A DNA stretch of 11,192 bases from an uncultured archaeon (GCA_964508365.1 CAZDTP010000091.1:1-11192); one strand, 5' to 3'; shown: positions 143 to 11,192, numbered from the stretch's first letter. The notes: generated by a model from the sequence alone, not told the origin. Made by a program: numbers and translations.

Positions 143-173
143 TGCAAAAAATTATACTATATTTGTTTAAATA
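143..173 (+). promoter_or_regulatory. Conserved upstream motif copy 1 plus TATA-like box
   Basis: TGCAAAAAATTATACTATA at 143-161 (16/19 to consensus); TTTAAATA at 166-173 (+23); 85 nt before the start at 228. Confidence 0.7.
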
Positions 174-227
174 TAAAAATTTTCGATACTTTTCTTAAGA
201 AAATTTCGTTAAAGAAGCGAGATAGAA

Positions 228-506
228 TTGTTGTTTGAAGAAAAGAAGAAACCAGAAAAGAAGAAAAAGAAATTTGGAAAGACCAAATTGATTGCTTTCC
301 TTATTTTGCTGCCTATAGTATCGTTATTAGTCACTTTGCTGATCTTAGCAATCCCTTACGGTATTGCTACTAGGTTGGGGGTGGGGATGGAAGATTACTG
401 GACATATATTTTCCAAAATGGGTATTTCTGGCCTACCTTTGGTGTGGTTTTACTCGTCTCTCCTATAATCACAGCTATCTTGTGGATGGTCGTAGCGAAT
501 TATTGA
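228..506 (+). CDS. Small two-TM membrane protein; stand-alone copy of the C-terminal module of the LRR protein at 8324-10468
   Basis: 92 aa, TTG start, Lys-rich N-terminus then two hydrophobic helices. TKLIAF...SPIITA is identical to the end of the 714-aa protein. It has its own copy of the upstream motif. Confidence 0.7.
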   Translation: MLFEEKKKPEKKKKKFGKTKLIAFLILLPIVSLLVTLLILAIPYGIATRLGVGMEDYWTYIFQNGYFWPTFGVVLLVSPIITAILWMVVANY

Positions 507-605
507 TTTTAAAACGAAAAATGTCCTAATACCAAAAAAAATCAGAGAAACTAAGTTAATTATGATTGAAATCAAAATTATTGAGTAAAAATTCGTCAAA
601 CTTAC
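285..605 (+). repeat. Left copy of long direct repeat (partner 10247-10567)
   Basis: 285-466 matches 10247-10428 at 181/182 nt (one synonymous C/T at 309/10271). 467-605 stays collinear without gaps at about 72% (39 mismatches in 139 nt, hand count). Confidence 0.97.
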
Positions 606-890
606 GAAAAAGAATGCAATTGCTCCCAAAATGGTGAATGTAATGTCGCTTCCTGAATTTACTACACTATCTTTTTTTTTATTAAATTTTACATAAGCTC
701 TCAAGAAATTGCTATTTTCGATTATTTCCCATAAAACACTTATGAACAAAATTAATAATAAGCTTATAAATAATGGGATAAAGAGGATGAAGAAAATCAT
801 GTGTAATACATAACCTTTGAGAAAATGTCCCAAGCTAAAAGGGTCAACTGCCGCAATGCCGTAGTCTTCCTTGGTCCGTGCGATAATCAT
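450..890 (-). CDS. DUF2585-like integral membrane protein
   Basis: 146 aa, about 4 TM segments, with D-x-x-S-x-x-H (DPFSLGH), WE-x-x-EN (WEIIEN) and DS-x-x-NS-x-x-D (DSVVNSGSD) motifs as in DUF2585 (recognised by motif, not searched). 3' end overlaps the 228-506 gene by 57 nt. Confidence 0.8.
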   Translation of the reverse strand: MIIARTKEDYGIAAVDPFSLGHFLKGYVLHMIFFILFIPLFISLLLILFISVLWEIIENSNFLRAYVKFNKKKDSVVNSGSDITFTILGAIAFFFVSLTNFYSIILISIIINLVSLIFFGIRTFFVLKSIIRYDHPQDSCDYRRDE

Positions 891-930
891 GCTATATCCT
901 TTAAATTTTAATCCATTTTATACCGTATTG

Positions 931-961
931 TGCAAAAAATTCTACCTTATTTTTTTAAATA
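931..961 (+). promoter_or_regulatory. Conserved upstream motif copy 2 plus TATA-like box
   Basis: TGCAAAAAATTCTACCTTA at 931-949; TTTAAATA at 954-961 (+23); 77 nt before the ATG at 1008. Confidence 0.8.
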
Positions 962-1007
962 CATAACTTACTATGATTTATATAAAGAACCTTAAGTTGT
1001 TTAAAAA

Positions 1008-2411
1008 ATGTATCGAAAACACAAAATAATAAAAATTGCCTTCATTGGATTGCTTTTAGCAGTAGTATTTGGTCTAGCGAATAATCAATTAATTAGATGC
1101 GAAGGTGAAAAGCAACCATCCGAAAATTTTGAACTACAAACAGCAAATTCAGGAAATTCAGTTCAATATGAATGGAATCGTACATGGGGAGGTGTTGATG
1201 TTGATGATGGTTGGGTTGTGGCGGTTGATTCATCAAAAAATATATATCTTGCGGGAGAGACAATGAGTTATGGGGTCGGAGAACAAGATATGGTACTAGT
1301 GAAATATGACGGAAACGGCGTGCAGCAATGGAATCGTACGTGGGGTGGAGTAAATTTTGATCGGTGCTTAGGAGTCGCGATAGATTCGTCTGATAATTTG
1401 TATCTTGCAGGATTTACGTATAGTTTCGGGGCGGGAGATTCAGATATGGTACTTGTGAAATATGACGGAAATGGCATGCAGCAATGGAATCGTACATGGG
1501 GTGGAGTTGGTTCCGAAGTTTGTGTTGGGGTAGCAGTGGATTCCTCAAATAACACATATCTTTCAGGATATACCAATAGTTCTGGGGCAGGATTTGACGA
1601 TATGCTTCTAGTGAAATATGATCTAAACGGTGTGCAGCAATGGAATTGCACATGGGGTGGAAATAATGATGACTTGGCTTATGAAATAGCATTAGATTCT
1701 TCAGATAATATTTTTGTCGTAGGGAAGACAGAAAGTTTTGGAGCAGGAGGCGAGAATATATTTTTAGTTAATTATGATGGAAACGGCGTGCAGCAATGGA
1801 ATCGTACATGGGGCGGAGATGATGATGATGCTGCCTATGGAATAGCTTTAGATTCTGCAGATAATATTTATATATCGGGAAAAACAGAATCTTTTGGTGC
1901 GGGACTTCGGGATTTTGTTCTTGTCAAGTATGATAGTTCTGGTATTCAACAATGGAACCGCACCTGGGGTGGAGGCTTACCGGATTATAGCAATGGAGTA
2001 GTAACAGATTTGTCTGGTAATGTATATCTTGTAGGAGACACATTTAGTTATGCCCTAAATCCAGGAAGTAGCGATATTGCTTTAGTGAAATATGATGGAA
2101 ACGGTGTAATGCAGTGGTATCGCACGTGGGGCGGAGATTCCTGGGATTTGGGTAAAGCAGTGGCGATAGATTCATCTGGCAATGTATATATTGGAGGATT
2201 TACTTATAGTTTCGGAGTTGGAGCTTGCGACATGGTTTTAATAAAATATAAAGCAGAATCTACTTCTACAGGCATTTCAAGTTATAATCTAGTCATAATT
2301 TTAGGAGTTTTAAGTATCAGCAGTTTTTTCTTGGTTAAAAAAATAATGTCCAAAAAAACTAAATTATCGAGATTAACAGCCCAGATTATAAACTTTTATT
2401 CGTCTCGGTGA
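1008..2411 (+). CDS. Surface protein with seven SBBP-type beta-propeller repeats and a Loki-CTERM-like C-terminal anchor
   Basis: 467 aa. N-terminal basic plus hydrophobic signal; seven repeats of W-N-R-T-W-G-G...D-S-S-x-N-x-Y-x-x-G-x-T-x-S...D-x-x-L-V-K-Y-D; C-terminal ISSYNL, TM helix and KKIMSKK (from 2271). Confidence 0.95.
   Translation: MYRKHKIIKIAFIGLLLAVVFGLANNQLIRCEGEKQPSENFELQTANSGNSVQYEWNRTWGGVDVDDGWVVAVDSSKNIYLAGETMSYGVGEQDMVLVKYDGNGVQQWNRTWGGVNFDRCLGVAIDSSDNLYLAGFTYSFGAGDSDMVLVKYDGNGMQQWNRTWGGVGSEVCVGVAVDSSNNTYLSGYTNSSGAGFDDMLLVKYDLNGVQQWNCTWGGNNDDLAYEIALDSSDNIFVVGKTESFGAGGENIFLVNYDGNGVQQWNRTWGGDDDDAAYGIALDSADNIYISGKTESFGAGLRDFVLVKYDSSGIQQWNRTWGGGLPDYSNGVVTDLSGNVYLVGDTFSYALNPGSSDIALVKYDGNGVMQWYRTWGGDSWDLGKAVAIDSSGNVYIGGFTYSFGVGACDMVLIKYKAESTSTGISSYNLVIILGVLSISSFFLVKKIMSKKTKLSRLTAQIINFYSSR
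1173..2249 (+). repeat. Seven intragenic tandem units, 156-bp period (propeller blades)
   Basis: The TGG of the W-N-R-T-W-G-G motif starts at 1173, 1329, 1485, 1641, 1797, 1953 and 2115 (five 156-nt steps, then 162 nt). Confidence 0.95.
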
Positions 2412-2482
2412 TAATAGGAATAATTGCGCTGATCGGAATCGTCACGATTATAGTTTGGAATAAAAGATCTCGATCAAATTAG
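2363..2482 (+). pseudogene. Startless out-of-frame relic of a C-terminal membrane anchor
   Basis: The -1 frame relative to the SBBP gene reads IIEINSPDYKLLFVSVIIGIIALIGIVTIIVWNKRSRSN* between TAA (2360-2362) and TAG (2480-2482): about 21 hydrophobic residues, then a basic tail. Confidence 0.7.
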
Positions 2483-2489
2483 TTAATCC

Positions 2490-2497
2490 TTTTTTTT
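2490..2497 (+). terminator. Oligo-T putative archaeal terminator
   Basis: T8 tract 8 nt after the relic anchor stop codon. Confidence 0.5.
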
Positions 2498-2599
2498 AAA
2501 TTTTAGTTAATTCTAAGAATAAATAATCAAAATCTAAATTCTCTGAAAATCCGTAGTAATTAATTATATGAATGGGCTTTATAGCAATTTTCTTTTTAA

Positions 2600-2632
2600 T
2601 GCAAAAAATTCTACCTTAACTTTTTTTATATT
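2600..2632 (+). promoter_or_regulatory. Conserved upstream motif copy 3 plus TATA-like box
   Basis: TGCAAAAAATTCTACCTTA at 2600-2618 (identical to copy 2); TTTTTATATT at 2623-2632; 141 nt before the ATG at 2741. Confidence 0.75.
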
Positions 2633-2740
2633 ATAGGTGGATTAATTCAAGTAAAGAATTAGATTTTTTTAATTCTCTAAATATAAATTAAAAACTCTGA
2701 AAAAAGTGAAATCTAAGCATATTAAAATGAAGTCTTATAT

Positions 2741-3250
2741 ATGGCTCAAATCGAGAAGAAAGCTAGGCCACAATATCTCGGGAAAGTAATGAAGGGAGTT
2801 GGCGTTTTAACTCTGTTAAGTATAGTTCTTCCATCAGCTGTTCAAACGGGATCTGGAGTATGGAATTTATTGTGGTATATTGGTATTTTTTGGGGAGGAA
2901 CTGTTTATGGTGAACAATTTATAGGTTTTATTAATGATGCTTGGTACATGCCAATTGGAGTAATTACAATGGTTTTATTAATTATCGCATTAATATTTAT
3001 CGCTATATCAGCTAGAAATATAAACAAGGAGAGAAATTACAAATTAGCCACAGGAATGAGTTTATTTGGCAGTATTTTAGCCATTATTAGTCCAATTGTA
3101 TATTATTTCTATTTGAATGCAGAAATGTTTTGGGATCTATATCTTCCTGTAAGTATATTTCTTTCAATCATAGCAGGAATCTTAGGAATCATATGTGCTA
3201 TCATGGTTGGGTTTACTTCTAAATTAAGATCAAAATCAGGTGAAAAGTAG
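2741..3250 (+). CDS. Four-TM membrane protein of unknown function
   Basis: 169 aa, four hydrophobic segments, basic N- and C-termini, longer aromatic/Gly-rich loop after TM1 (WNLLWYIGIFWGG). Confidence 0.85.
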   Translation: MAQIEKKARPQYLGKVMKGVGVLTLLSIVLPSAVQTGSGVWNLLWYIGIFWGGTVYGEQFIGFINDAWYMPIGVITMVLLIIALIFIAISARNINKERNYKLATGMSLFGSILAIISPIVYYFYLNAEMFWDLYLPVSIFLSIIAGILGIICAIMVGFTSKLRSKSGEK

Positions 3251-3268
3251 AATAAAGAGGAAATTATA

Positions 3269-3305
3269 ATTGGGATTTTTCCCAATACCTTTTTTTAATT
3301 TTTTT
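3269..3305 (+). terminator. Hairpin plus T-tracts downstream of the 4-TM gene
   Basis: ATTGGGA-TTTT-TCCCAAT (7-bp stem, 3269-3286) followed by T7 at 3290-3296 and T7 at 3299-3305. Confidence 0.65.
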
Positions 3306-3412
3306 ATGACCATAGAATTTGAAAATAAATATTTAAAAATTAAAAGTTAATTTTATGGCTTAAAAAATCCTAGTAAAATGGTGATTAGTACCATTATTAA
3401 TCATGTAGATAA

Positions 3413-3443
3413 TGCAAAAAAACCTACCTTATTTGATTATATA
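3413..3443 (+). promoter_or_regulatory. Conserved upstream motif copy 4 plus TATA-like box
   Basis: TGCAAAAAAACCTACCTTA at 3413-3431 (17/19); ATTATATA at 3436-3443 (+23); 83 nt before the ATG at 3496. Confidence 0.8.
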
Positions 3444-3495
3444 GCTAATATGATTAAAGTTGATTAATAATAATTAAGACATACTAGGATAAATA

Positions 3496-5730
3496 ATGAA
3501 AATGAAAAGAGATAAAAAGAAAAATTTAATCACATTCGCAATGATGATATCTTTATTAATTACGATTATGTCACCAGCTTTCTTTACAAATGAAGAAAGA
3601 GAGCAGGATTTATTCAAATTCGGGGGTGACGGAGGGATGAAGCCAAAAACATCTTATTATGAGTGGTACCAGACTACTATGAATGTTCACTCCTATGTTA
3701 CTGGATTTCATGTTGCAGACGCTAATAATGATGGTTACAATGATCTTGTACTTGCTAACGGAAATAATAAAACAGCTTCTATTTTAATATGGAATGAATC
3801 AATGCTTTCTTGGAATGAAGAAATAATAAAAGAGTTTGGAGAAACGGTTGATGCTATTATTATTGAAGATGCAGATAATGATGGTTATAATGATTTAATT
3901 GCAAGGAACTCTGATAATTTAACAATATTATTGTGGAATGATATTTCAAAAGACTGGATAGACAAGATCCAATTTCAAATAGAAATCTATATTGTATATA
4001 ATTATATAGATAATTTCGCTGTAGAGGACGCAAATAATGACGGTTATAATGATATAGTTGTGAATGACGAGTATGAAAGCGAAATATTCTTTTGGAATAA
4101 TACAATTGATGATTGGAATGATCCCATTTTCGATGATGGTCTTGGAATAAGTTTAAATATAAAGGATGCAAATAATGATGGTTTTAATGATTTAATCGCC
4201 TATCACCCATGGAACGGTAATCCTGGTAGGAATAGGGTTATTATAAGATTGTGGAATTCTTCAATAGGGTATTGGGATCCTGAATTTAATATCACGGTAG
4301 CAGAGGATGATATTTCAAGTCTTTTTGTTGAGGATGTTAATAACGATGGCTATAATGATATTATAACTACTAACTACGAGCACTCTTTTCCATCCGAAAA
4401 CAAAATTTCCATTCGACTTTGGAATGAACATACTCAATATTGGGATCCTCTATTTACGAAACCAATTGAAGAAGCTAGTTCGATCAGTTCTGGAGATGTT
4501 AATAATGATGGCTATAGTGATATTATATTATATGGTGAAGCTTATATAAATTACCACTGGGAGGATGTAATTTTCATTTTAATATGGGATGACGAAATTA
4601 AAAACTGGAAAACTCCTGTTAATAAGATCATAGACAACCCAGAAGTTCGTCCTGGTCCAATAGTTACGGATGTGGATAATGATGGAGATTATGATATTGC
4701 TTTTTTAAGCTCTGGTAATGACGAGATCACTTTCATTTTATGGGAATTTTTCGATGTGTATAGTCCCATTGTTAATATACATGATCCACTCGATGGAGAT
4801 GTCTTTTATTACGGTCCACCGAGTTTTTTTGTAGAAGTATCAGATAGTAACTCCTCTATTGATTCAATGTGGTATAGTCTTAATGGAGGAATTACAAATT
4901 ATACATTTTATGATAATGGGACTATAAGCCTAGAAGCATGGGAGGCTGTATTGGATGGGACTGTTAAAATTACATTTTATGCAAACGATACAGAAGGAAA
5001 CATAGGGTTTAATGAAGTTACTGTATATAAAGACATGCATCTTCCCAGTCTACAATTTAATTCTCCATATTGGAATATTACCTACTCAAATTTCTTGCCT
5101 ATAGATTTTTCCTTTAATGATGACACTTTAGATGAAATCAGAATTATTATGGATAATTCACCAGAGGTTAATTATTCCGTATATCCTTATTTAGATTATG
5201 CTAATATTCTCGGAAGATGGCAAAATTTAGATGACGGACAAATTAGTATCGAATTTCACGCAAAAGATATACTGGGAAAAGATAACATATATGTTTTTGT
5301 TGTCAATAAAGACACTACTGCTCCTGTTATTACAATCAATTCTCCAAAACAATATGATAAATTTTGGGAGGATTCTCCTCATTTTGATATATCTATTGAA
5401 GAGCCTAATTTGGATAGTGTGTGGTATGAAATAGAAATATTTTATTATAAATCTGCTAATTTTAGTATAACAGAATTAACTGGAAGTGTTGATAAAGGTT
5501 TCTGGGATTCTTTAGGCGATAATTACCTTGGTTCATCATGCAGAATAACTTTTTATGCTAACGATACCCTTGGACATCTGAGTTCTAAATCTGTAGTGAT
5601 TAATCGAGAGGTTCCAGGACCATCTCTTTCTGAACTAATTATCTTGAGCTCTATTATTGGTGGAGTAGTGGTAATAAGTATCGTAATTTACTTTTCGATA
5701 AAACAAAGGCTTAAGAAAAGAAAAACATAA
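3496..5730 (+). CDS. Surface protein: seven FG-GAP/VCBS-like repeats, three Ig-like domains, C-terminal TM anchor
   Basis: 744 aa. Signal segment; seven D-x-[ND]-N-D-G-x-x-D motifs; three repeats of about 95 aa of the type P-x-I-x-I-x-x-P...W...DG...ITFYAND-x-x-G; TM helix and KQRLKKRKT. Confidence 0.95.
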   Translation: MKMKRDKKKNLITFAMMISLLITIMSPAFFTNEEREQDLFKFGGDGGMKPKTSYYEWYQTTMNVHSYVTGFHVADANNDGYNDLVLANGNNKTASILIWNESMLSWNEEIIKEFGETVDAIIIEDADNDGYNDLIARNSDNLTILLWNDISKDWIDKIQFQIEIYIVYNYIDNFAVEDANNDGYNDIVVNDEYESEIFFWNNTIDDWNDPIFDDGLGISLNIKDANNDGFNDLIAYHPWNGNPGRNRVIIRLWNSSIGYWDPEFNITVAEDDISSLFVEDVNNDGYNDIITTNYEHSFPSENKISIRLWNEHTQYWDPLFTKPIEEASSISSGDVNNDGYSDIILYGEAYINYHWEDVIFILIWDDEIKNWKTPVNKIIDNPEVRPGPIVTDVDNDGDYDIAFLSSGNDEITFILWEFFDVYSPIVNIHDPLDGDVFYYGPPSFFVEVSDSNSSIDSMWYSLNGGITNYTFYDNGTISLEAWEAVLDGTVKITFYANDTEGNIGFNEVTVYKDMHLPSLQFNSPYWNITYSNFLPIDFSFNDDTLDEIRIIMDNSPEVNYSVYPYLDYANILGRWQNLDDGQISIEFHAKDILGKDNIYVFVVNKDTTAPVITINSPKQYDKFWEDSPHFDISIEEPNLDSVWYEIEIFYYKSANFSITELTGSVDKGFWDSLGDNYLGSSCRITFYANDTLGHLSSKSVVINREVPGPSLSELIILSSIIGGVVVISIVIYFSIKQRLKKRKT
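3718..4700 (+). repeat. Seven FG-GAP-like Ca2+-binding repeat units
   Basis: Motif starts at 3718, 3868, 4027, 4165, 4333, 4495 and 4669 (DANNDGYND, DADNDGYND, DANNDGYND, DANNDGFND, DVNNDGYND, DVNNDGYSD, DVDNDGDYD); similarity is also visible at DNA level. Confidence 0.92.
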
Positions 5731-5739
5731 CTCAACAAC

Positions 5740-5756
5740 TTTTATTTTTTTATTTT
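5740..5756 (+). terminator. T-rich terminator between convergent genes
   Basis: TTTTATTTTTTTATTTT in the 33-nt gap between the stops at 5730 and 5764. Confidence 0.55.
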
Positions 5757-5763
5757 GGAATAC

Positions 5764-7068
5764 CTATAAATCTAATTTTTTAGTTTCAGAATCAGATTCA
5801 TTTTCAAGAGCTTCGTCCTTCTCTTTCAATTCTTTATAAAGCTTTTGGAAGTCTTCTGTAGTTAAGAACGGAGATTTAGCAAGCTCGAGTTTGATCTGTT
5901 CATATTCTGTTTCATCTGGGATAATGTTTTTTAATTCGTTTTCTAACTGTTTAGGTATATTAACCTGACTTTTTAAAAGCAAAGGTTGCCTGTAGCTTGT
6001 AAACATCCGAGATGGAAAATTAGAAAAGTACTTTTGAACAAGCGTATAAGCGTTCTTATATTTACTCGTATCCTTTTCGTTAGAAATTAGTTGTTTTTGG
6101 AACATTGATTCAAACTCTAACGCAAACCCACTCAATGCGTCTCTAACTAATTTTGAAGATTTTGACGAAATAAGCCCAATTGTAATGTATTTTGATTCGT
6201 GCATTAAAAGTACGCCCTCCTGAAGATGGATATCCAATAGCCCTCCTTTATGTAAAACTTCTTCACTCATGATCTGAATAGCATTTATGAATCCCGCGAA
6301 CATGACTTCACTCACGTCAGATTCGGACCAATGGTGATCGAAGAGCAAAAAACCCTCTTGATCCTTTACAGATATTCGATATAAAGTGAAAGGGAGGACA
6401 TAAATCAGTTGTGGTTGATACACTAACATGGAAGCAACAATCAGCGCTCCTACTCCAATGGAGAGGTTAGAAAAATGGATGAGAAATGGAAAAAATACAT
6501 TCATTAAATAGAAGATGGTAGATCCAATTGATGCAGTGCAAGTACCAATAAAAAAGATAGCTGATTCTCGCTTAATTAAGAAAGGAGAGTTCTTCCAGGT
6601 AATATAGCCCCAGTATAGGAGATATATCGGTAATATTGTCGATATGATTAACGCTATAATTTCAAAAGGACCTCTCCACGCAATAGTTAGAACCCCTTCT
6701 TCGATCACAATGACAATCGATTCAGGTTGGAAAACTAGATAGCAATATAAAACGACGATTCCAAACACTAATATCAACCCTCTTGAATAAATGATTTCTT
6801 TCTTAACATAATTAATGCAAAAAATAAGAAATAGGGTGGGAAAAATCAGTGTGAGTGCGTGAATGATGTTGATCGTCTTGTTTAAAAACAGATTAGATAA
6901 CCCCTCTATATAAAAAAATAAGGCTAAAAAGTTCCATGTTAACCGAAGGAAGAATATGGCTCGTATATTTCTCAGTTCCTTAGACCGAAATGTGTATATA
7001 GCCGTGAATAGAAGAATACTCCCCGTGATAAAAGTTGAGATTACATAAATAGTCCAGTTCAACACCAT
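5764..7068 (-). CDS. Seven-TM protein with cytoplasmic longin-like domain
   Basis: 434 aa. Seven hydrophobic helices in residues 1-220, then a beta-beta-alpha-beta-beta-beta-alpha pattern typical of longin-like folds (RISVKDQEGFLLF...FAGFINAIQIMSEEVL...LISSKSSKLVRDALSGFALEFESMF), then a charged helical tail. No H-box or ATPase motifs. Fold call is by pattern only. Confidence 0.85.
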   Translation of the reverse strand: MVLNWTIYVISTFITGSILLFTAIYTFRSKELRNIRAIFFLRLTWNFLALFFYIEGLSNLFLNKTINIIHALTLIFPTLFLIFCINYVKKEIIYSRGLILVFGIVVLYCYLVFQPESIVIVIEEGVLTIAWRGPFEIIALIISTILPIYLLYWGYITWKNSPFLIKRESAIFFIGTCTASIGSTIFYLMNVFFPFLIHFSNLSIGVGALIVASMLVYQPQLIYVLPFTLYRISVKDQEGFLLFDHHWSESDVSEVMFAGFINAIQIMSEEVLHKGGLLDIHLQEGVLLMHESKYITIGLISSKSSKLVRDALSGFALEFESMFQKQLISNEKDTSKYKNAYTLVQKYFSNFPSRMFTSYRQPLLLKSQVNIPKQLENELKNIIPDETEYEQIKLELAKSPFLTTEDFQKLYKELKEKDEALENESDSETKKLDL

Positions 7069-7071
7069 TTT

Positions 7072-7764
7072 TTAGGCCTCCTTCTTGACAATAGCTAATT
7101 GAGAACCTTCAAAGACTGATTTTAACATTTGGTGGACAGTGGTACTAATACATATCAAACCATTATCCTTAGTTACCAGTAGACCACAATTTTCTAATTC
7201 CTTCAAGTGGTAATATATGGTTTCACGGGTTTTTCCCAGTTTTTCGTATATTAAGAGCTTTTCAATGCATTCCTGATCAATAAACAAATAAAAAATATTT
7301 TTGTTAGTATTATCTCGCAATAAAAAATACAAAAGTCCATGTTCATCATCAATATTACTAGGAACGAATATACTATAATTTTTAAAAGAAATTTTTTTGA
7401 TATAATTGAATTTAATTAACATGTCGAGATGCCAAACCAATTGACCTGTGCTTCCCATCTTTTTAGCGTAAAATTTTCTTTTTAGAGCGGAAAAATGAAT
7501 CCCTTGATTATAAAGTATGATCTGGAATAAATAATTTCTAAATTGATTGTCTAAAACCGAATCCCGCGTAAATTTGGAACCATCAACCAGAAATTTATTA
7601 TCAATCAATAATTGAATGATTTGCAAGAGTCCTTTTCTCGGTATTTTTAACCTTCTTTTTGCTCTTTGATATAGGGTATGTGTGTCGAGAAATTTATTTT
7701 CATTCGCAATCTCTTCTGCGATTTCTAATACATCTTGCACGCTGGGATGTTCCAAAGAGAGCAT
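7072..7764 (-). CDS. Winged-helix transcriptional regulator with multiple wHTH domains (COG3398-like)
   Basis: 230 aa. N-x-G-I-H-F-S-x-L...GQLVWHLDML and RETIYYHLKELENCGLL resemble the two HTHs of COG3398, plus an extra N-terminal helical domain. The stop is 3 nt from the ATG of the 7TM gene, so they are probably one operon. Confidence 0.85.
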   Translation of the reverse strand: MLSLEHPSVQDVLEIAEEIANENKFLDTHTLYQRAKRRLKIPRKGLLQIIQLLIDNKFLVDGSKFTRDSVLDNQFRNYLFQIILYNQGIHFSALKRKFYAKKMGSTGQLVWHLDMLIKFNYIKKISFKNYSIFVPSNIDDEHGLLYFLLRDNTNKNIFYLFIDQECIEKLLIYEKLGKTRETIYYHLKELENCGLLVTKDNGLICISTTVHQMLKSVFEGSQLAIVKKEA

Positions 7765-7843
7765 GATACACCACAGAGAAGGAAAGATTGAATTTTACTA
7801 GTTAGTAATAGTTGACTTTTTAGTAAATAATTGAATTTAATTC

Positions 7844-7851
7844 TATTTAAA
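7844..7851 (-). promoter_or_regulatory. TATA box of the regulator operon
   Basis: The minus strand reads GCAAGAAAGC-TTTAAATA (purine-rich BRE-like run then TATA), 80 nt upstream of the ATG at 7764. Confidence 0.5.
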
Positions 7852-7858
7852 GCTTTCT

Positions 7859-7889
7859 TGCAAAAAATCCTCCCTAATGAATTTAAATT
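7859..7889 (+). promoter_or_regulatory. Conserved upstream motif copy 5 plus TATA-like box
   Basis: TGCAAAAAATCCTCCCTAA at 7859-7877 (16/19); TTTAAATT at 7882-7889 (+23); 60 nt before the ATG at 7919. Confidence 0.75.
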
Positions 7890-7918
7890 AGCTTAATTTA
7901 ATCACAAGTTAACTGAGA

Positions 7919-8167
7919 ATGAAAAAACACGTTAATTATCAATACTTCTTCAGTTTAATTTGTACGGTATTCGTTGTAGTTGTAGCTATTTTCATTCTTT
8001 CCTTCACCATCTTGAGTTCTTTCAGTCAGTCTAGCGAATACCCTGCCATTTATGGATACAATTTGGAAATTCTGATATTTATTTTCTCCCTAATTTCCAT
8101 TATAACCATACTCTATTGCAGATCAAGAATTAAATATTCACCACCCAATATCAACCAATATCAATAA
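7919..8167 (+). CDS. Mini-protein: N-terminal TM/signal fused almost directly to a Loki-CTERM-like anchor
   Basis: 82 aa. Hydrophobic helix, short linker (SFSQSSEY), PAIYGYNL, second helix, CRSRIK basic tail; has its own upstream motif. Confidence 0.75.
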   Translation: MKKHVNYQYFFSLICTVFVVVVAIFILSFTILSSFSQSSEYPAIYGYNLEILIFIFSLISIITILYCRSRIKYSPPNINQYQ

Positions 8168-8186
8168 ATTTGGAGTTAAAGAGTAA

Positions 8187-8219
8187 TGCAAAAAATCATA
8201 CCTTATAATTATTTATACA
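8187..8219 (+). promoter_or_regulatory. Conserved upstream motif copy 6 plus TATA-like box
   Basis: TGCAAAAAATCATACCTTA at 8187-8205 (17/19); TATTTATACA at 8210-8219; 137 nt before the TTG at 8324 and only 20 nt after the previous stop. Confidence 0.75.
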
Positions 8220-8323
8220 AATATGTAATCCTAATGTGTAAAAAACACTAGTTAAAATATATCTAAAATGAAGTATTAAAAAAAAATCAATTTTAAAGTA
8301 AATATTTAGGTAGATTTTCCATT

Positions 8324-10468
8324 TTGAAAAGAAATATAAATAATTTAGTCTTGGTTGTTATGTTCTTTGGATTTTCCCTACTATTCATAAGTTCGTCATT
8401 AATCCTCAAAAACTATGAGAATAAACCACCATTTCAACCGATTGCTAGTGCGGGTGAAATTACTCTCCTTACTCCCGAGAATATCACCTATATAACTGGA
8501 ATGGATGGTTATTTTGCAGGCACCTATAGTTTCGAAAATGAAAATATCGGTTTTAATCCTTCAAATTGGAATGTATTTGAAGATGGTGGCTACGTGAATA
8601 TAAAGGATTCCTATTTAGGACATAATGAGGTGGTAGAATTATGTAAGAATTCTGGTGGAATTGTAAGTTGTCGAAATTTATTTGAAAACAAGACTAGTGG
8701 ATTAATTGAATTTTGGTTTTGCTCAAATAGAACAGATCAGGAATTTTTAATAAGGATCAGTGATGGAGAATTTTATGGTGGCAGGATTGAAATCAAATTT
8801 GGGGATGATGGTCAATTAAAGGTACTTGATGGTATTCAAATCTCGAATATTATTTCATATGTAGGAGATACTTGGTATCACTTAAAAATTGAGTGGGATA
8901 TTTTTCAGGGAGATTTTGATTGGAACTTAAGTTTGAATGATACAGAGGTTGGAACTTTTTCTTTTTACGGTAATCCTTTTAATCTCAATAGGATCATATT
9001 TAGTAGTGATATAAGTTCTCCTTCTGAGAATGCATATTTTTACATAGATGCAGTTGGTTATTCTTGGGATCAAGAATACGAAATTGGGGATAATCTATAT
9101 GAAGGATTATTGGTAAACTTTGAAACAACTTTGAGTTTTGAAACATTTTGGTGTGAATTAGATGGTATTCATTACAAGAATTTTATAGGGAACCATACAA
9201 TTCCAATGATACAATATGGCTCCCATTCCCTACAGGTTTTTGGAACCATATCTTCTACAACCTACTCTTCAAACATCGTTCATTTTACAACCTTGGTGGA
9301 TAGGTGGGGTCCATCAATAATCATTAAATCACCAGGTGAAAATAGTATCCATATCTTTAGGCCTCCTATATGTGAAATTGAAGTAAATGATCCCAATGGA
9401 GTAAATGCGACTTATTACATGCTCACATATGGAGGGGTATCCTCTTCACTAACGAAATGGGAAGGTTTTATCAATTCAGATGTCTGGAATTCAGCACCTG
9501 ATGGAGAGATAACCATTACTTTTTATTCTCAAGATGACCTTGGAAATTGGTCATGGAAAAGTATCACGGTAATAAGAGCTCTTAAGTTATTGATTCTAAT
9601 CATTGGATTACCCTTATTGGTTTGTATAGCATCACTAGGGATTTGGTTATTTTTGCGAAAAAGAAAGAAACTACGGGAAACTGTGGAAAACATGAGATAT
9701 GAGGATCTTCAAGAAAACATGGTGATCGTGAAAGGAAAGAAGTACAAAAACAAATCATTGGAAGGACTAACTTTGCGCAATCTTAAGATTTCCTATGTAG
9801 GTGAAATATTTGGGTTCGAACAGCTTTCAGAACTTAAGAAGTTAAACTTAGCTCAGAATAACCTGACCTCTATTAAGGAACTGGGACATAGCGAGAGCCT
9901 AACAGAATTGGATTTATCCCAAAACAAGATAGTAAACTTGTCAGGGATTGAGAAACTTACTAACCTGAAAGTTCTCTATCTAGATGAAAATAAGATTGTA
10001 GATATCTCACCAATATCGGGGCTTTCCCATCTTCAAATACTTCATATCAGACATAACGATCTTCCCACTTTGGATCCCTTATACGACCTAATTAACTTAA
10101 GTTCCCTTTGCATAGAAGGAAATTATAAGATCGTGTATTCTTGGGAAAATACCTTGTTCAAACGTCTTCGCTATCTTGATATCAGGCCAAAACCGACAGT
10201 TAGTTATCAAGAAAGCGATAAAGTAAAGAGTAAGAAAGGGAATACAAAATTGATTGCTTTCCTTATTTTGTTGCCTATAGTATCGTTATTAGTCACTTTG
10301 CTGATCTTAGCAATCCCTTACGGTATTGCTACTAGGTTGGGGGTGGGGATGGAAGATTACTGGACATATATTTTCCAAAATGGGTATTTCTGGCCTACCT
10401 TTGGTGTGGTTTTACTCGTCTCTCCTATCATCACCGCCTTTTTGTGGTTTGTTGTACAGGATTATTGA
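8324..10468 (+). CDS. Receptor-like membrane protein: extracellular LamG-like and Ig-like domains, TM, cytoplasmic leucine-rich repeats, C-terminal two-TM hairpin
   Basis: 714 aa, TTG start. N-terminal TM; about 390-aa beta-rich region; TM at about 9587-9655 followed by RKRKK; six LRRs at about 9758-10130, four of them exact 22-aa SDS22-like units (e.g. LTELDLSQNKIVNLSGIEKLTN); two more TM helices. Confidence 0.93.
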   Translation: MKRNINNLVLVVMFFGFSLLFISSSLILKNYENKPPFQPIASAGEITLLTPENITYITGMDGYFAGTYSFENENIGFNPSNWNVFEDGGYVNIKDSYLGHNEVVELCKNSGGIVSCRNLFENKTSGLIEFWFCSNRTDQEFLIRISDGEFYGGRIEIKFGDDGQLKVLDGIQISNIISYVGDTWYHLKIEWDIFQGDFDWNLSLNDTEVGTFSFYGNPFNLNRIIFSSDISSPSENAYFYIDAVGYSWDQEYEIGDNLYEGLLVNFETTLSFETFWCELDGIHYKNFIGNHTIPMIQYGSHSLQVFGTISSTTYSSNIVHFTTLVDRWGPSIIIKSPGENSIHIFRPPICEIEVNDPNGVNATYYMLTYGGVSSSLTKWEGFINSDVWNSAPDGEITITFYSQDDLGNWSWKSITVIRALKLLILIIGLPLLVCIASLGIWLFLRKRKKLRETVENMRYEDLQENMVIVKGKKYKNKSLEGLTLRNLKISYVGEIFGFEQLSELKKLNLAQNNLTSIKELGHSESLTELDLSQNKIVNLSGIEKLTNLKVLYLDENKIVDISPISGLSHLQILHIRHNDLPTLDPLYDLINLSSLCIEGNYKIVYSWENTLFKRLRYLDIRPKPTVSYQESDKVKSKKGNTKLIAFLILLPIVSLLVTLLILAIPYGIATRLGVGMEDYWTYIFQNGYFWPTFGVVLLVSPIITAFLWFVVQDY

Positions 10469-10567
10469 TTTTAAAACACTATATGCCCTAATACTGATAA
10501 AAAGCAAAGAAATTAGTCCAAGTATGAGAGAAATCACGATTATCGCAACGAAATTCATCAAACTCAC
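10247..10567 (+). repeat. Right copy of long direct repeat (partner 285-605)
   Basis: Constant offset of 9962 nt with no indels across 321 nt. Confidence 0.97.
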
Positions 10568-10603
10568 ATAAAATAATACTAGCATAAAGAGAAACGATAA
10601 CTC
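10412..10603 (-). pseudogene. 5'-truncated paralog of the DUF2585-like gene (or a 57-aa small protein from the ATG at 10585)
   Basis: Not in the ORF track. Reads MLVLFYVSLMNFVAIIVISLILGLISLLFISIRAYSVLKSIILYNKPQKGGDDRRDE*, 31/57 identical to the C-terminus of the 450-890 protein with the stop at the equivalent position. In-frame stop at 10604-10606; all conserved H/E/D motifs missing. Confidence 0.8.
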
Positions 10604-10736
10604 TTACAATAACAATTCATACGGACGACTACGACTATACCGTTAAAAAAGCTTCATGGGATTAAATTAAAAAAAAACTACTTTTTACCTTATTTCTTCT
10701 TAATAATTTGAAATTTATGAAGGTTAAATCATCTGA

Positions 10737-10767
10737 ATTGATAAATTCTACCTTTTTTGGATATAAT
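10737..10767 (+). promoter_or_regulatory. Degenerate seventh copy of the upstream motif
   Basis: ATTGATAAATTCTACCTTT (13/19, right half intact) with GATATAAT at +23; no sizeable ORF follows before 11165. Confidence 0.35.
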
Positions 10768-11164
10768 CCAAGATATTTAATTTAATTAATAAAAAGAAAG
10801 AAATAAAAAAGTATTTCTCCATTTCCTATTTTCAACAACTCCTAATATTTCAATCAATTAAAAGATAACTACTTTTATATAAATTGAATCATATAATAAT
10901 TAAGAAAAATCCTTAAAGTAAATCAGTGAATAATCTTGAGCGAGGTTACTATATTCTTTGTAATGGGAACCAAGGATATTCCACTAATTCCAAGTAATAG
11001 ATATATTTAAGAATTGGTTATGTAATCGAAGAGATCAAAAAATTTTTAAAACATCTATCTACACTTTCACAAAACGAACAAATAAAAAACAAGGTTATCT
11101 CCTAAAAAAGATGACCCCAAAGAATTACAGTTAAATTAAAAATAGAAAAGAGTGGAGGAAACAA

Positions 11165-11192
11165 ATGGGAATAGAATGTCCAAAGTGTAAAG
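11165..11192 (+). CDS. 5' end of a probable zinc-ribbon (CxxC) protein, cut by the window edge
   Basis: GGAGG-AAACAA-ATG then MGIECPKCK; only 9 codons visible. Confidence 0.55.

Follow-up and report, generated by a model that had tools for sequence, protein, structure and literature searches.

Archaeal activators typically bind upstream of the TFB-recognition element (BRE) of the promoters that they control (PMC5512572). In Methanococcus maripaludis, for example, the promoter of the fla operon, a set of cell-surface genes, is served by a dedicated activator, EarA, that reads four 6-bp repeats immediately upstream of the BRE/TATA, and TFB-RF1 (PF1088) of Pyrococcus furiosus and the Lrp-type protein Ptr2 of Methanocaldococcus jannaschii also have sites just upstream of the BRE/TATA and recruit TFB or TBP (PMC5512572). 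In the Thermococcales, one regulator (TrmBL1/Tgr) is matched to one motif (TGM), a palindrome that is read by a dimer across a genome-wide sugar regulon; whether TrmBL1 activates or represses can be predicted from the position of TGM relative to the BRE/TATA, upstream sites being activating and downstream sites repressing (PMC4706686). Here, we describe a 19-bp asymmetric element that occurs six times in an 11,192-bp stretch of DNA from an uncultured archaeon (CAZDTP010000091.1; this whole stretch is called the window), each time directly ahead of a TATA-like box. Among the copies lies a gene for a protein with three winged-helix domains (positions 7072-7764, the regulator), which shares an operon with a gene for a seven-transmembrane (7TM) protein. 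The element is most likely a transcription-factor operator, a kind of element that is already known.

The window is the whole of contig C91 (32.1% G+C) of a 4.07-Mb genome assembled in 149 contigs (G000; 31.8% G+C). Among the names carried by homologues of its proteins are Candidatus Lokiarchaeota and Promethearchaeota archaeon. To our knowledge, most Asgard lineages cannot be grown or manipulated, and gene control in Asgard archaea is almost unstudied. Based on TFIIB cyclin repeats, the genome holds about nine TFB loci (on contigs C16, C20, C21, C22, C23, C25, C38, C49 and C60), an unusually large set of TFB paralogues.

Results

Six copies of one element, each joined to a TATA-like box

A search of the window with TGCAAAAAATTCTACCTTA, allowing up to three mismatches, gave exactly six matches, all on the plus strand, at 143, 931, 2600, 3413, 7859 and 8187 (Table 1). 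Two of them have no mismatch, two have two and two have three. The chance expectation for this search is 0.01, and none of 200 shuffles gave six matches. TGCAAAAAA is invariant in all six copies, as are T13, C15, A19 and the T at -2. Each copy is followed by a 3-nt spacer and then by a TATA-like box, an A/T octamer of the TTTAAATA or TTTATATA type; throughout this work, TATA boxes and transcription starts were assigned from sequence only. The core octamer begins +23 to +26 from the motif start, and the distance from the motif start to the start codon is 85, 77, 141, 83, 60 and 137 nt for the copies in order. Pairwise identity among the copies is 85% in the 19 motif columns and 56% in the spacer and TATA box. 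It falls to 34-37% outside, over 40 nt on the upstream side and 46 nt on the downstream side. The difference between motif and flanks points to selection on the element itself rather than to a recently copied promoter block. No known RNA family or tRNA overlaps the motif in the window.

These results bear on an initial annotation of the window, which had reported the same six copies with 16 to 19 of 19 matching positions, all of which were found again with zero to three mismatches. Its range of 60 to 141 nt between motif and start codon was measured again without change, and its view that the motif is tied to the promoter and not to translation agrees with a 3-nt TATA spacing that is fixed while the distance to the start codon varies. 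It had placed a copy ahead of all six plus-strand genes, which is true of the six complete ones; a partial plus-strand gene that starts at 11165 has no motif copy. The TATA position that it described is fixed, as it had said, although the range extends to +26 rather than ending at +25. The claim that the motif marks a set of surface proteins also stands, in that all six genes encode exported or membrane proteins.

Two of the copies, 931 and 7859, also face TATA-like boxes on the minus strand (915-922 and 7844-7851), located 8 and 7 nt from the 5' end of the motif. These boxes stand ahead of the minus-strand genes 450-890 and 7072-7764, the latter being the regulator operon. The back-to-back layout seen at copy 7859 recurs at homologous regulator promoters. 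When the rest of the window was scanned with a matrix of the wider motif family described below, no further site of at least 9 bits was found. A possible seventh copy at about 10735-10757 (ATTGATAAATTCTACCTTT followed by GGATATAAT) was not counted, as it scores below 9 bits and has no open reading frame (ORF) downstream. This motif-like remnant (about 10735-10765; ATTGATAAATTCTACCTTT, then TTTGGATATAAT) lies in an ORF-free 700-nt stretch (10469-11164) and may be a decayed promoter.

Table 1. Positions of the motif copies and genes in the window
Feature	Position	Strand	Remarks
Motif copy 1, 3-nt spacer and TATA-like box	143..174	+	TGCAAAAAATTATACTATA; weakest copy, 16/19; ahead of ORF 228-506
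Motif copy 2 (consensus), spacer and TATA	931..962	+	Ahead of SBBP gene 1008-2411
Motif copy 3 (consensus), spacer and TATA	2600..2631	+	Ahead of 169-aa membrane-protein gene 2741-3250
Motif copy 4, spacer and TATA	3413..3444	+	Ahead of FG-GAP/Ig gene 3496-5730
Motif copy 5, spacer and TATA	7859..7890	+	Ahead of 82-aa gene 7919-8167; between back-to-back TATA boxes
Motif copy 6, spacer and TATA	8187..8218	+	Ahead of LamG-like/LRR gene 8324-10468
TATA box of regulator operon	7844..7851	-	TTTAAATA, read on this strand; the 5' end of copy 5 is 7 nt away
Regulator gene	7072..7764	-	230 aa; three tandem winged-helix domains and a C-terminal helix; proposed motif reader
7TM membrane-protein gene	5764..7068	-	434 aa; in operon with the regulator, 3-nt gap
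Putative target 1	228..506	+	92-aa protein with two transmembrane segments; copy of the LRR protein's tail
Putative target 2	1008..2411	+	Exported SBBP beta-propeller protein with C-terminal anchor
Putative target 3	2741..3250	+	169-aa multi-pass membrane protein
Putative target 4	3496..5730	+	Surface protein with FG-GAP repeat and Ig-like parts
Putative target 5	7919..8167	+	82-aa membrane protein
Putative target 6	8324..10468	+	LamG-like/CBM and LRR membrane protein
DUF2585-like membrane-protein gene	450..890	-	Divergent from copy 2; reverse-facing TATA at 915-922

Strong matches to the motif are confined to one contig of the genome

We derived a matrix from the six copies and scored every position of the genome with it. 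The window copies take the first six places, at 19.9-26.7 bits; seventh, among 8.1 million positions, is a match of 19.0 bits that has no TATA-like box behind it and is not promoter-like. All strong matches in the 4.07-Mb genome sit on this 11-kb contig. We also aligned 356 TATA-octamer promoters of the genome, a survey used in place of a consensus from tRNA upstream regions, which offered only 14 tRNAs and no clean alignment. These promoters have no conserved block at -22 to -4, and only an A at -3 in 53% of them. An upstream site was not found at the Ig-like paralogues of the FG-GAP protein on other contigs. The motif is thus not a generic promoter element.

The initial annotation had stated that equal frequency before housekeeping genes would mark the motif as generic, which is not what the 356 promoters show. 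The same promoters leave little weight to its argument that the bases before the TATA box are T-rich rather than a purine-rich BRE, since they have almost no BRE signal either. The regulon that it had proposed would be a local one, every copy in the genome being on this contig. Its suggestion to carry the same matrix into other Asgard genomes yielded almost nothing: none of 59 related genomes, including 36 from the same genus, has more than one match to a degenerate form of the pattern.

The matches listed in a genome_contigs scan with TGCAAAAAANNNTNCCTTA were scattered singles from unrelated bacteria, which is what a pattern with 15 defined bases would give by chance. Among the matches listed in a metagenome_contigs scan with TGYAAAAAATYCTACCTTR, most were chance singles, and 4 of 119 stretches had the motif-TATA geometry; two of these four, L245 and L300, are orthologous loci. 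What is conserved is a family of clade-specific variants, of which the window motif is a local one. The family-wide element can be written as TGyAaAAwwTnnrTCCTwA-N3-TATA.

The element accompanies genes of the regulator family

The only close paralogues of the regulator/7TM pair in the genome are two pairs on contig C88, with 42-44% identity. This contig carries the elements TGTAGAATTTTAGTCCTTA, TGTATAAATTTAGTCCTAG, TGTAGAATTTTGGTCTATA and TTTAGAAATTTGGTCCTAA, each followed by N3-TATA. The two pairs are arranged back to back, each with its own operator variant (L138/L139; about 540-800, 3290-3320 and 4558-4590), and tandem double sites precede a gene for an exported LVIVD-repeat protein. We built a 30-nt matrix covering the motif, the three spacer positions and the TATA box from 14 sites in other genomes and two C88 sites, with zero sites from the window. 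Over the genome, the top seven hits of this matrix are on C88 (four) and in the window (three), and all six window copies are in the top 16.

Regulator homologues were found in 23 of 42 genomes of the genus, none with more than 52% identity. We retrieved 20 congeneric loci and examined 24 regulator genes, including the three of this genome. In every one of the 24 same-genus regulator loci, motif-N3-TATA occurs at least once within 3.5 kb. Certain positions relative to the regulator gene come up repeatedly: divergent at about -100, at its own promoter at about -410 to -450, and a short way beyond the operon at about +2050 to +2300, or, in loci that lack the 7TM gene, at +800. Six further regulator loci from other genera of the family also carry the element. 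As in all six window copies, the motif stops 3 nt short of a TATA-like box at more than 40 sites in relatives. A genus-wide scan with an IUPAC pattern gave 158 matches versus 95 for the reversed control. Of the 150 motif matches listed, about 26 have one of the 36 listed regulator matches at a distance of no more than 2.5 kb (4.6 kb in one case). Genomes with a regulator have 4.9 matches on average, compared to an average of 2.4 in genomes without one and a control level of 2.3. These comparative data tie the motif to the family of the 7072-7764 protein, which the initial annotation had named as a candidate reader.

Two side observations concern the sites in relatives. A near-consensus copy, TGCAAAAAATCGTACCTTA, at 1501-1519 on the minus strand of L124 (G010:C130) stands ahead of an exported beta-helix protein, and this site suggests that the regulon may be dispersed in some genomes. 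In seven loci, namely the six members of one regulator clade and L183 from another clade, a conserved block follows the TATA box of the divergent motif-TATA by about 70-85 nt (L171:10176, L173:10645, L174:311(-), L175:2376, L177:10113(-), L179:2151(-) and L183:10544). The block reads GGAGA-k-AATTA-r-AAATAGAGGGCT in consensus, and a T-rich run usually comes after it, though not in L183; in four of the seven loci no ORF lies close behind the motif. The block may represent a small RNA, or else a leader that has a terminator.

Each regulator clade has its own motif variant

In a maximum-likelihood tree, the 24 regulators fall into well-supported clades, each with its own motif variant. The sister of the window regulator is G064:C9a, with the site TGTAAAAAATCCTACCTTG. 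In the window clade, the recognition helix of the third domain reads YYHLKEL and the site is of the TACCTT type; most other clades have YYR in this helix (NYR in clade F) and sites of the GTCCTAA type. The helix of the second domain is almost invariant and hydrophobic. Because related regulators share both their clade and their motif variant, this match agrees with co-evolution and does not prove it.

Closer relatives in metagenomes retain the element at corresponding genes. Contig L190, whose regulator is 66% identical, has four copies in the same orientation (two TGCAAAAAATCCTACCTTA, one TGTAAAAAATCCTACCTTG and one TGCAAAAAATTCACCCTCA) with unrelated flanks, ahead of two SBBP genes, a 107-aa gene and a homologue of the 82-aa gene. 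Homologues of the latter stand behind the motif in G010:C43 as well as in L190. In L245, the motif is kept ahead of the orthologues of the 169-aa gene and the FG-GAP gene, in the second case despite a rearranged spacer region. In L300, it precedes the orthologue of the LRR gene (55% protein identity) and is the sole long conserved upstream block. Separately, the divergent region L194:980-1635, beside a 76%-identical regulator, has no 19-bp motif and contains a palindrome, TTGCCC CAAAGTTA GGGCAA, ahead of a 110-aa gene.

The regulator and its predicted membrane partner

The structural model of the regulator has high confidence (predicted local distance difference test [pLDDT] 91; predicted template modeling score 0.82) and consists of three tandem winged helices and a C-terminal helix. 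In Pfam, the protein has only weak matches to HTH_HVO_0163_N, ArsR and HTH_11. The first of these, PF24266, scores 25 bits against a cut-off of 31 (E 2e-5), and precomputed annotation assigns it to the regulator and some of its homologues. A structure search of the PDB returned generic tandem winged-helix arrays only (among them Rpc34, SelB, ScpB and MarR), with template modeling scores of at most 0.31. In the Pfam and structure searches, no membership in Lrp/AsnC or another characterized activator family was found.

The 7TM gene directly follows the regulator gene in 20 of the 22 homologues checked. In the model of the 7TM protein, the membrane part has a pLDDT of about 90, and residues 224-371 are below 50; these residues have a beta-beta-alpha-beta-beta-alpha pattern compatible with a longin/roadblock fold, although the low confidence of the model does not allow a fold to be named. 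A complex prediction for the regulator and the 7TM tail (residues 224-434) scored 0.71, compared to 0.38 for the best of three controls. In the calibration, 58 of 80 solved complexes scored this high, as did 2 of 110 mismatched pairs; these figures apply only roughly, since our own alignments were used. The runs agreed in at least 58% of contacts, and the partner pLDDT was at least 78. The predicted contacts join residues of about 406-421 in the 7TM tail to residues 104-118 and 129-131 of the regulator, and this modeling supports docking of the 7TM C-terminal helix on the regulator.

Genes behind the motif

The genes downstream of the motif copies are listed in Table 1. In relatives, genes behind the element encode NosD/beta-helix, LVIVD, SBBP and Ig-like proteins with signal anchors, as well as one TIM-barrel enzyme. 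The TTG start of the LRR gene and a AAATATTTAGGT block about 10 nt upstream of it are kept between diverged orthologues (window 8300-8326; L300:1040-1067), and AGGT upstream of the TTG is also present in L300. This conservation supports both the TTG start and a Shine-Dalgarno-like signal.

ORF 228-506 repeats the two-transmembrane tail of the LRR protein as a free-standing gene, and a motif copy stands ahead of it. The window contains a direct repeat of 300 nt (276-575 versus 10238-10537; 89% identical, 9962 bp apart) that spans this tail and the beginning of the adjoining minus-strand region. An origin of the repeat as a circular element or assembly overlap was ruled out, given that it is internal, is 300 nt long, is 89% identical and has differing flanks.

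Discussion

We favor, with moderate confidence, the interpretation that the regulator encoded at 7072-7764 has its operator in the 19-bp element and that binding there probably activates transcription. This interpretation is based on the confinement of the motif to one contig, its co-occurrence with the regulator family and its retention at orthologous promoters. A single asymmetric protein on an asymmetric site would account for a motif that is not palindromic and has a constant orientation to the TATA box. On the assumption that the TATA box is followed by a transcription start some 25 nt away, the site would cover about -52 to -34, immediately ahead of the BRE position. Archaeal activators that recruit TBP or TFB usually bind here, so the regulator would most likely switch on the six downstream genes. 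One regulator molecule could contact TBP or TFB, which the rigid 3-nt spacing fits. Via the reverse-facing TATA boxes, the regulator may also drive its own operon from copy 7859, a form of positive autoregulation, and the DUF2585-like gene from copy 931, making gene 450-890 a possible seventh target. The 7TM protein probably provides the input, and the modeled complex suggests that it would hold or release the regulator through its cytoplasmic C-terminal helix.

Several observations weigh against this interpretation. Regulator clades and motif variants are inherited together, hence their match is not independent evidence for co-evolution. L193 encodes a 78%-identical regulator with an unchanged recognition helix, and the site at the corresponding divergent promoter is degenerate, with about six of nine positions kept in the 5' half and the 3' half lost. 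No canonical site was seen on the short contigs L194-L197, whose regulators are 76% and 66% identical. Co-location is not absolute, as the G010 site on contig C130 has no regulator gene nearby, and the roughly nine TFB loci in the genome make another reader of the site conceivable. Finally, the 3' end of the motif reaches the BRE position, where a bound protein could hinder TFB rather than recruit it.

Another explanation keeps the same protein and site and assigns them negative or dual control. The regulator would block TFB at the BRE and keep the surface genes repressed until the 7TM protein removes it, or it would activate the rightward genes and repress its own operon. Consistent with this, the motif ends 3 nt from the TATA box with its last bases overlapping the 6-7 nt BRE position, the 5' end of copy 7859 is 7 nt from the regulator's own TATA box, and steric hindrance at the BRE/TATA is common for archaeal repressors (PMC5512572). 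However, the greater part of the 19 bp falls ahead of the BRE position, a fixed TATA spacing in more than 40 promoters fits stereospecific contact better than occlusion, and upstream sites are mostly activating in the cases studied (PMC4706686). We consider negative or dual control rather unlikely. We give still less credence to the idea that the element is an extended core-promoter signal read by a TFB paralogue, as the initial annotation had also considered, or by another chromosomal factor and not by the neighboring regulator. The number of TFB loci, the fixed spacing expected of a core element and the one G010 site away from any regulator gene could be interpreted in this way, but the motif is absent from the rest of the genome, and none of the TFB loci found is on the motif-bearing contigs C91 and C88. 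Moreover, the variants track regulator clades, and the sites are at the promoters of the regulator genes themselves, in 24 of 24 same-genus loci, a co-location that a TFB paralogue would leave unexplained. In addition, 19 bp reaching to about -52 exceeds known BRE contacts.

An explanation that involves no regulatory protein is very improbable. The copies would then have been left behind by duplication of a promoter cassette, or would form a recombination site at which surface-gene cassettes are shuffled, the latter also raised in the initial annotation. The contig does contain duplicated pieces, the 89%-identical segments 276-575 and 10238-10537, and gene order around the motif varies between relatives. 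Nevertheless, the flanks of the copies are at background identity (34-37% versus 85% in the motif), no recombinase domain is encoded on the contig, and the motif is kept at orthologous promoters across diverged relatives. It is always in the sense orientation at a fixed distance to the TATA box to which it is fused, and we found nothing in support of a recombination site.

If the element is the regulator's operator, a broader proposal can be made, which we regard as tentative and more doubtful than operator function itself. Lokiarchaeia may have a family of kinase-free transmembrane signaling systems in which a 7TM receptor retains a three-winged-helix factor through its C-terminal helix and lets it go to activate promoters whose operators are fused to the TATA box at a constant 3 nt. 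The family would be split into specificity classes, defined by variants of the operator and the recognition helix, giving several insulated channels per cell (here three: the window pair, C88a and C88b), each with its own surface-protein genes.

The locus is a compact test set, with one small soluble protein, a 19-bp site and six natural variants on one contig. Natural specificity variants are available in the C88 paralogues and in relatives, and the predicted membrane partner has a defined contact helix. If confirmed, the system would show how these archaea couple envelope and transcription without histidine kinases, how they control their integrin-like, propeller and LRR surface proteins, a large and fast-evolving repertoire of interest for eukaryogenesis, and how archaeal regulator families diversify in specificity. 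If the regulator does not bind, the element would still be a conserved promoter signal. In the literature that we searched (Asgard promoter motifs, HVO_0163 and 7TM/winged-helix pairs), we found no Asgard regulator with a known DNA site, and the regulator family, its fixed TATA fusion, its 7TM partner and the clade-specific variants were not described.

Comparison with known systems places this locus near several of them. As with EarA, a dedicated activator is proposed to act at a short, promoter-tied site ahead of cell-surface genes; here, the site is a single asymmetric 19-bp element at no fewer than six separate promoters rather than a set of repeats at one operon, and the reader is an unrelated three-winged-helix protein with a 7TM partner, known from sequence and models only. 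The location of the site just upstream of the BRE/TATA is also that of TFB-RF1 and Ptr2 sites, and TFB/TBP recruitment is what we propose here, but these activators belong to different protein families, and the regulator lacks the Lrp/AsnC match that would relate it to Ptr2. The weak-BRE argument made for TFB-RF1 and Ptr2 is not usable here, as the generic promoters of this genome are also without a clear BRE. TrmBL1 and TGM share the pairing of one regulator with one motif whose position is informative, except that the motif described here is asymmetric, is strictly upstream and lies within a single 11-kb locus.

Membrane sequestration of regulators is known from Mlc-PtsG in Escherichia coli and from pairs of anti-sigma factors and extracytoplasmic function (ECF) sigma factors. 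These resemble the proposed system in that a membrane protein is coupled to a transcription factor for surface functions, and ECF sigma factors have likewise diversified into paralogous pairs with distinct DNA sites. Here, the two components are separate polypeptides of uncharacterized families, with no sigma-like component, and they are linked by operon conservation and one fold model. The logic of the proposed 7TM/regulator family would thus resemble that of the ECF sigma/anti-sigma families, although the parts are unrelated.

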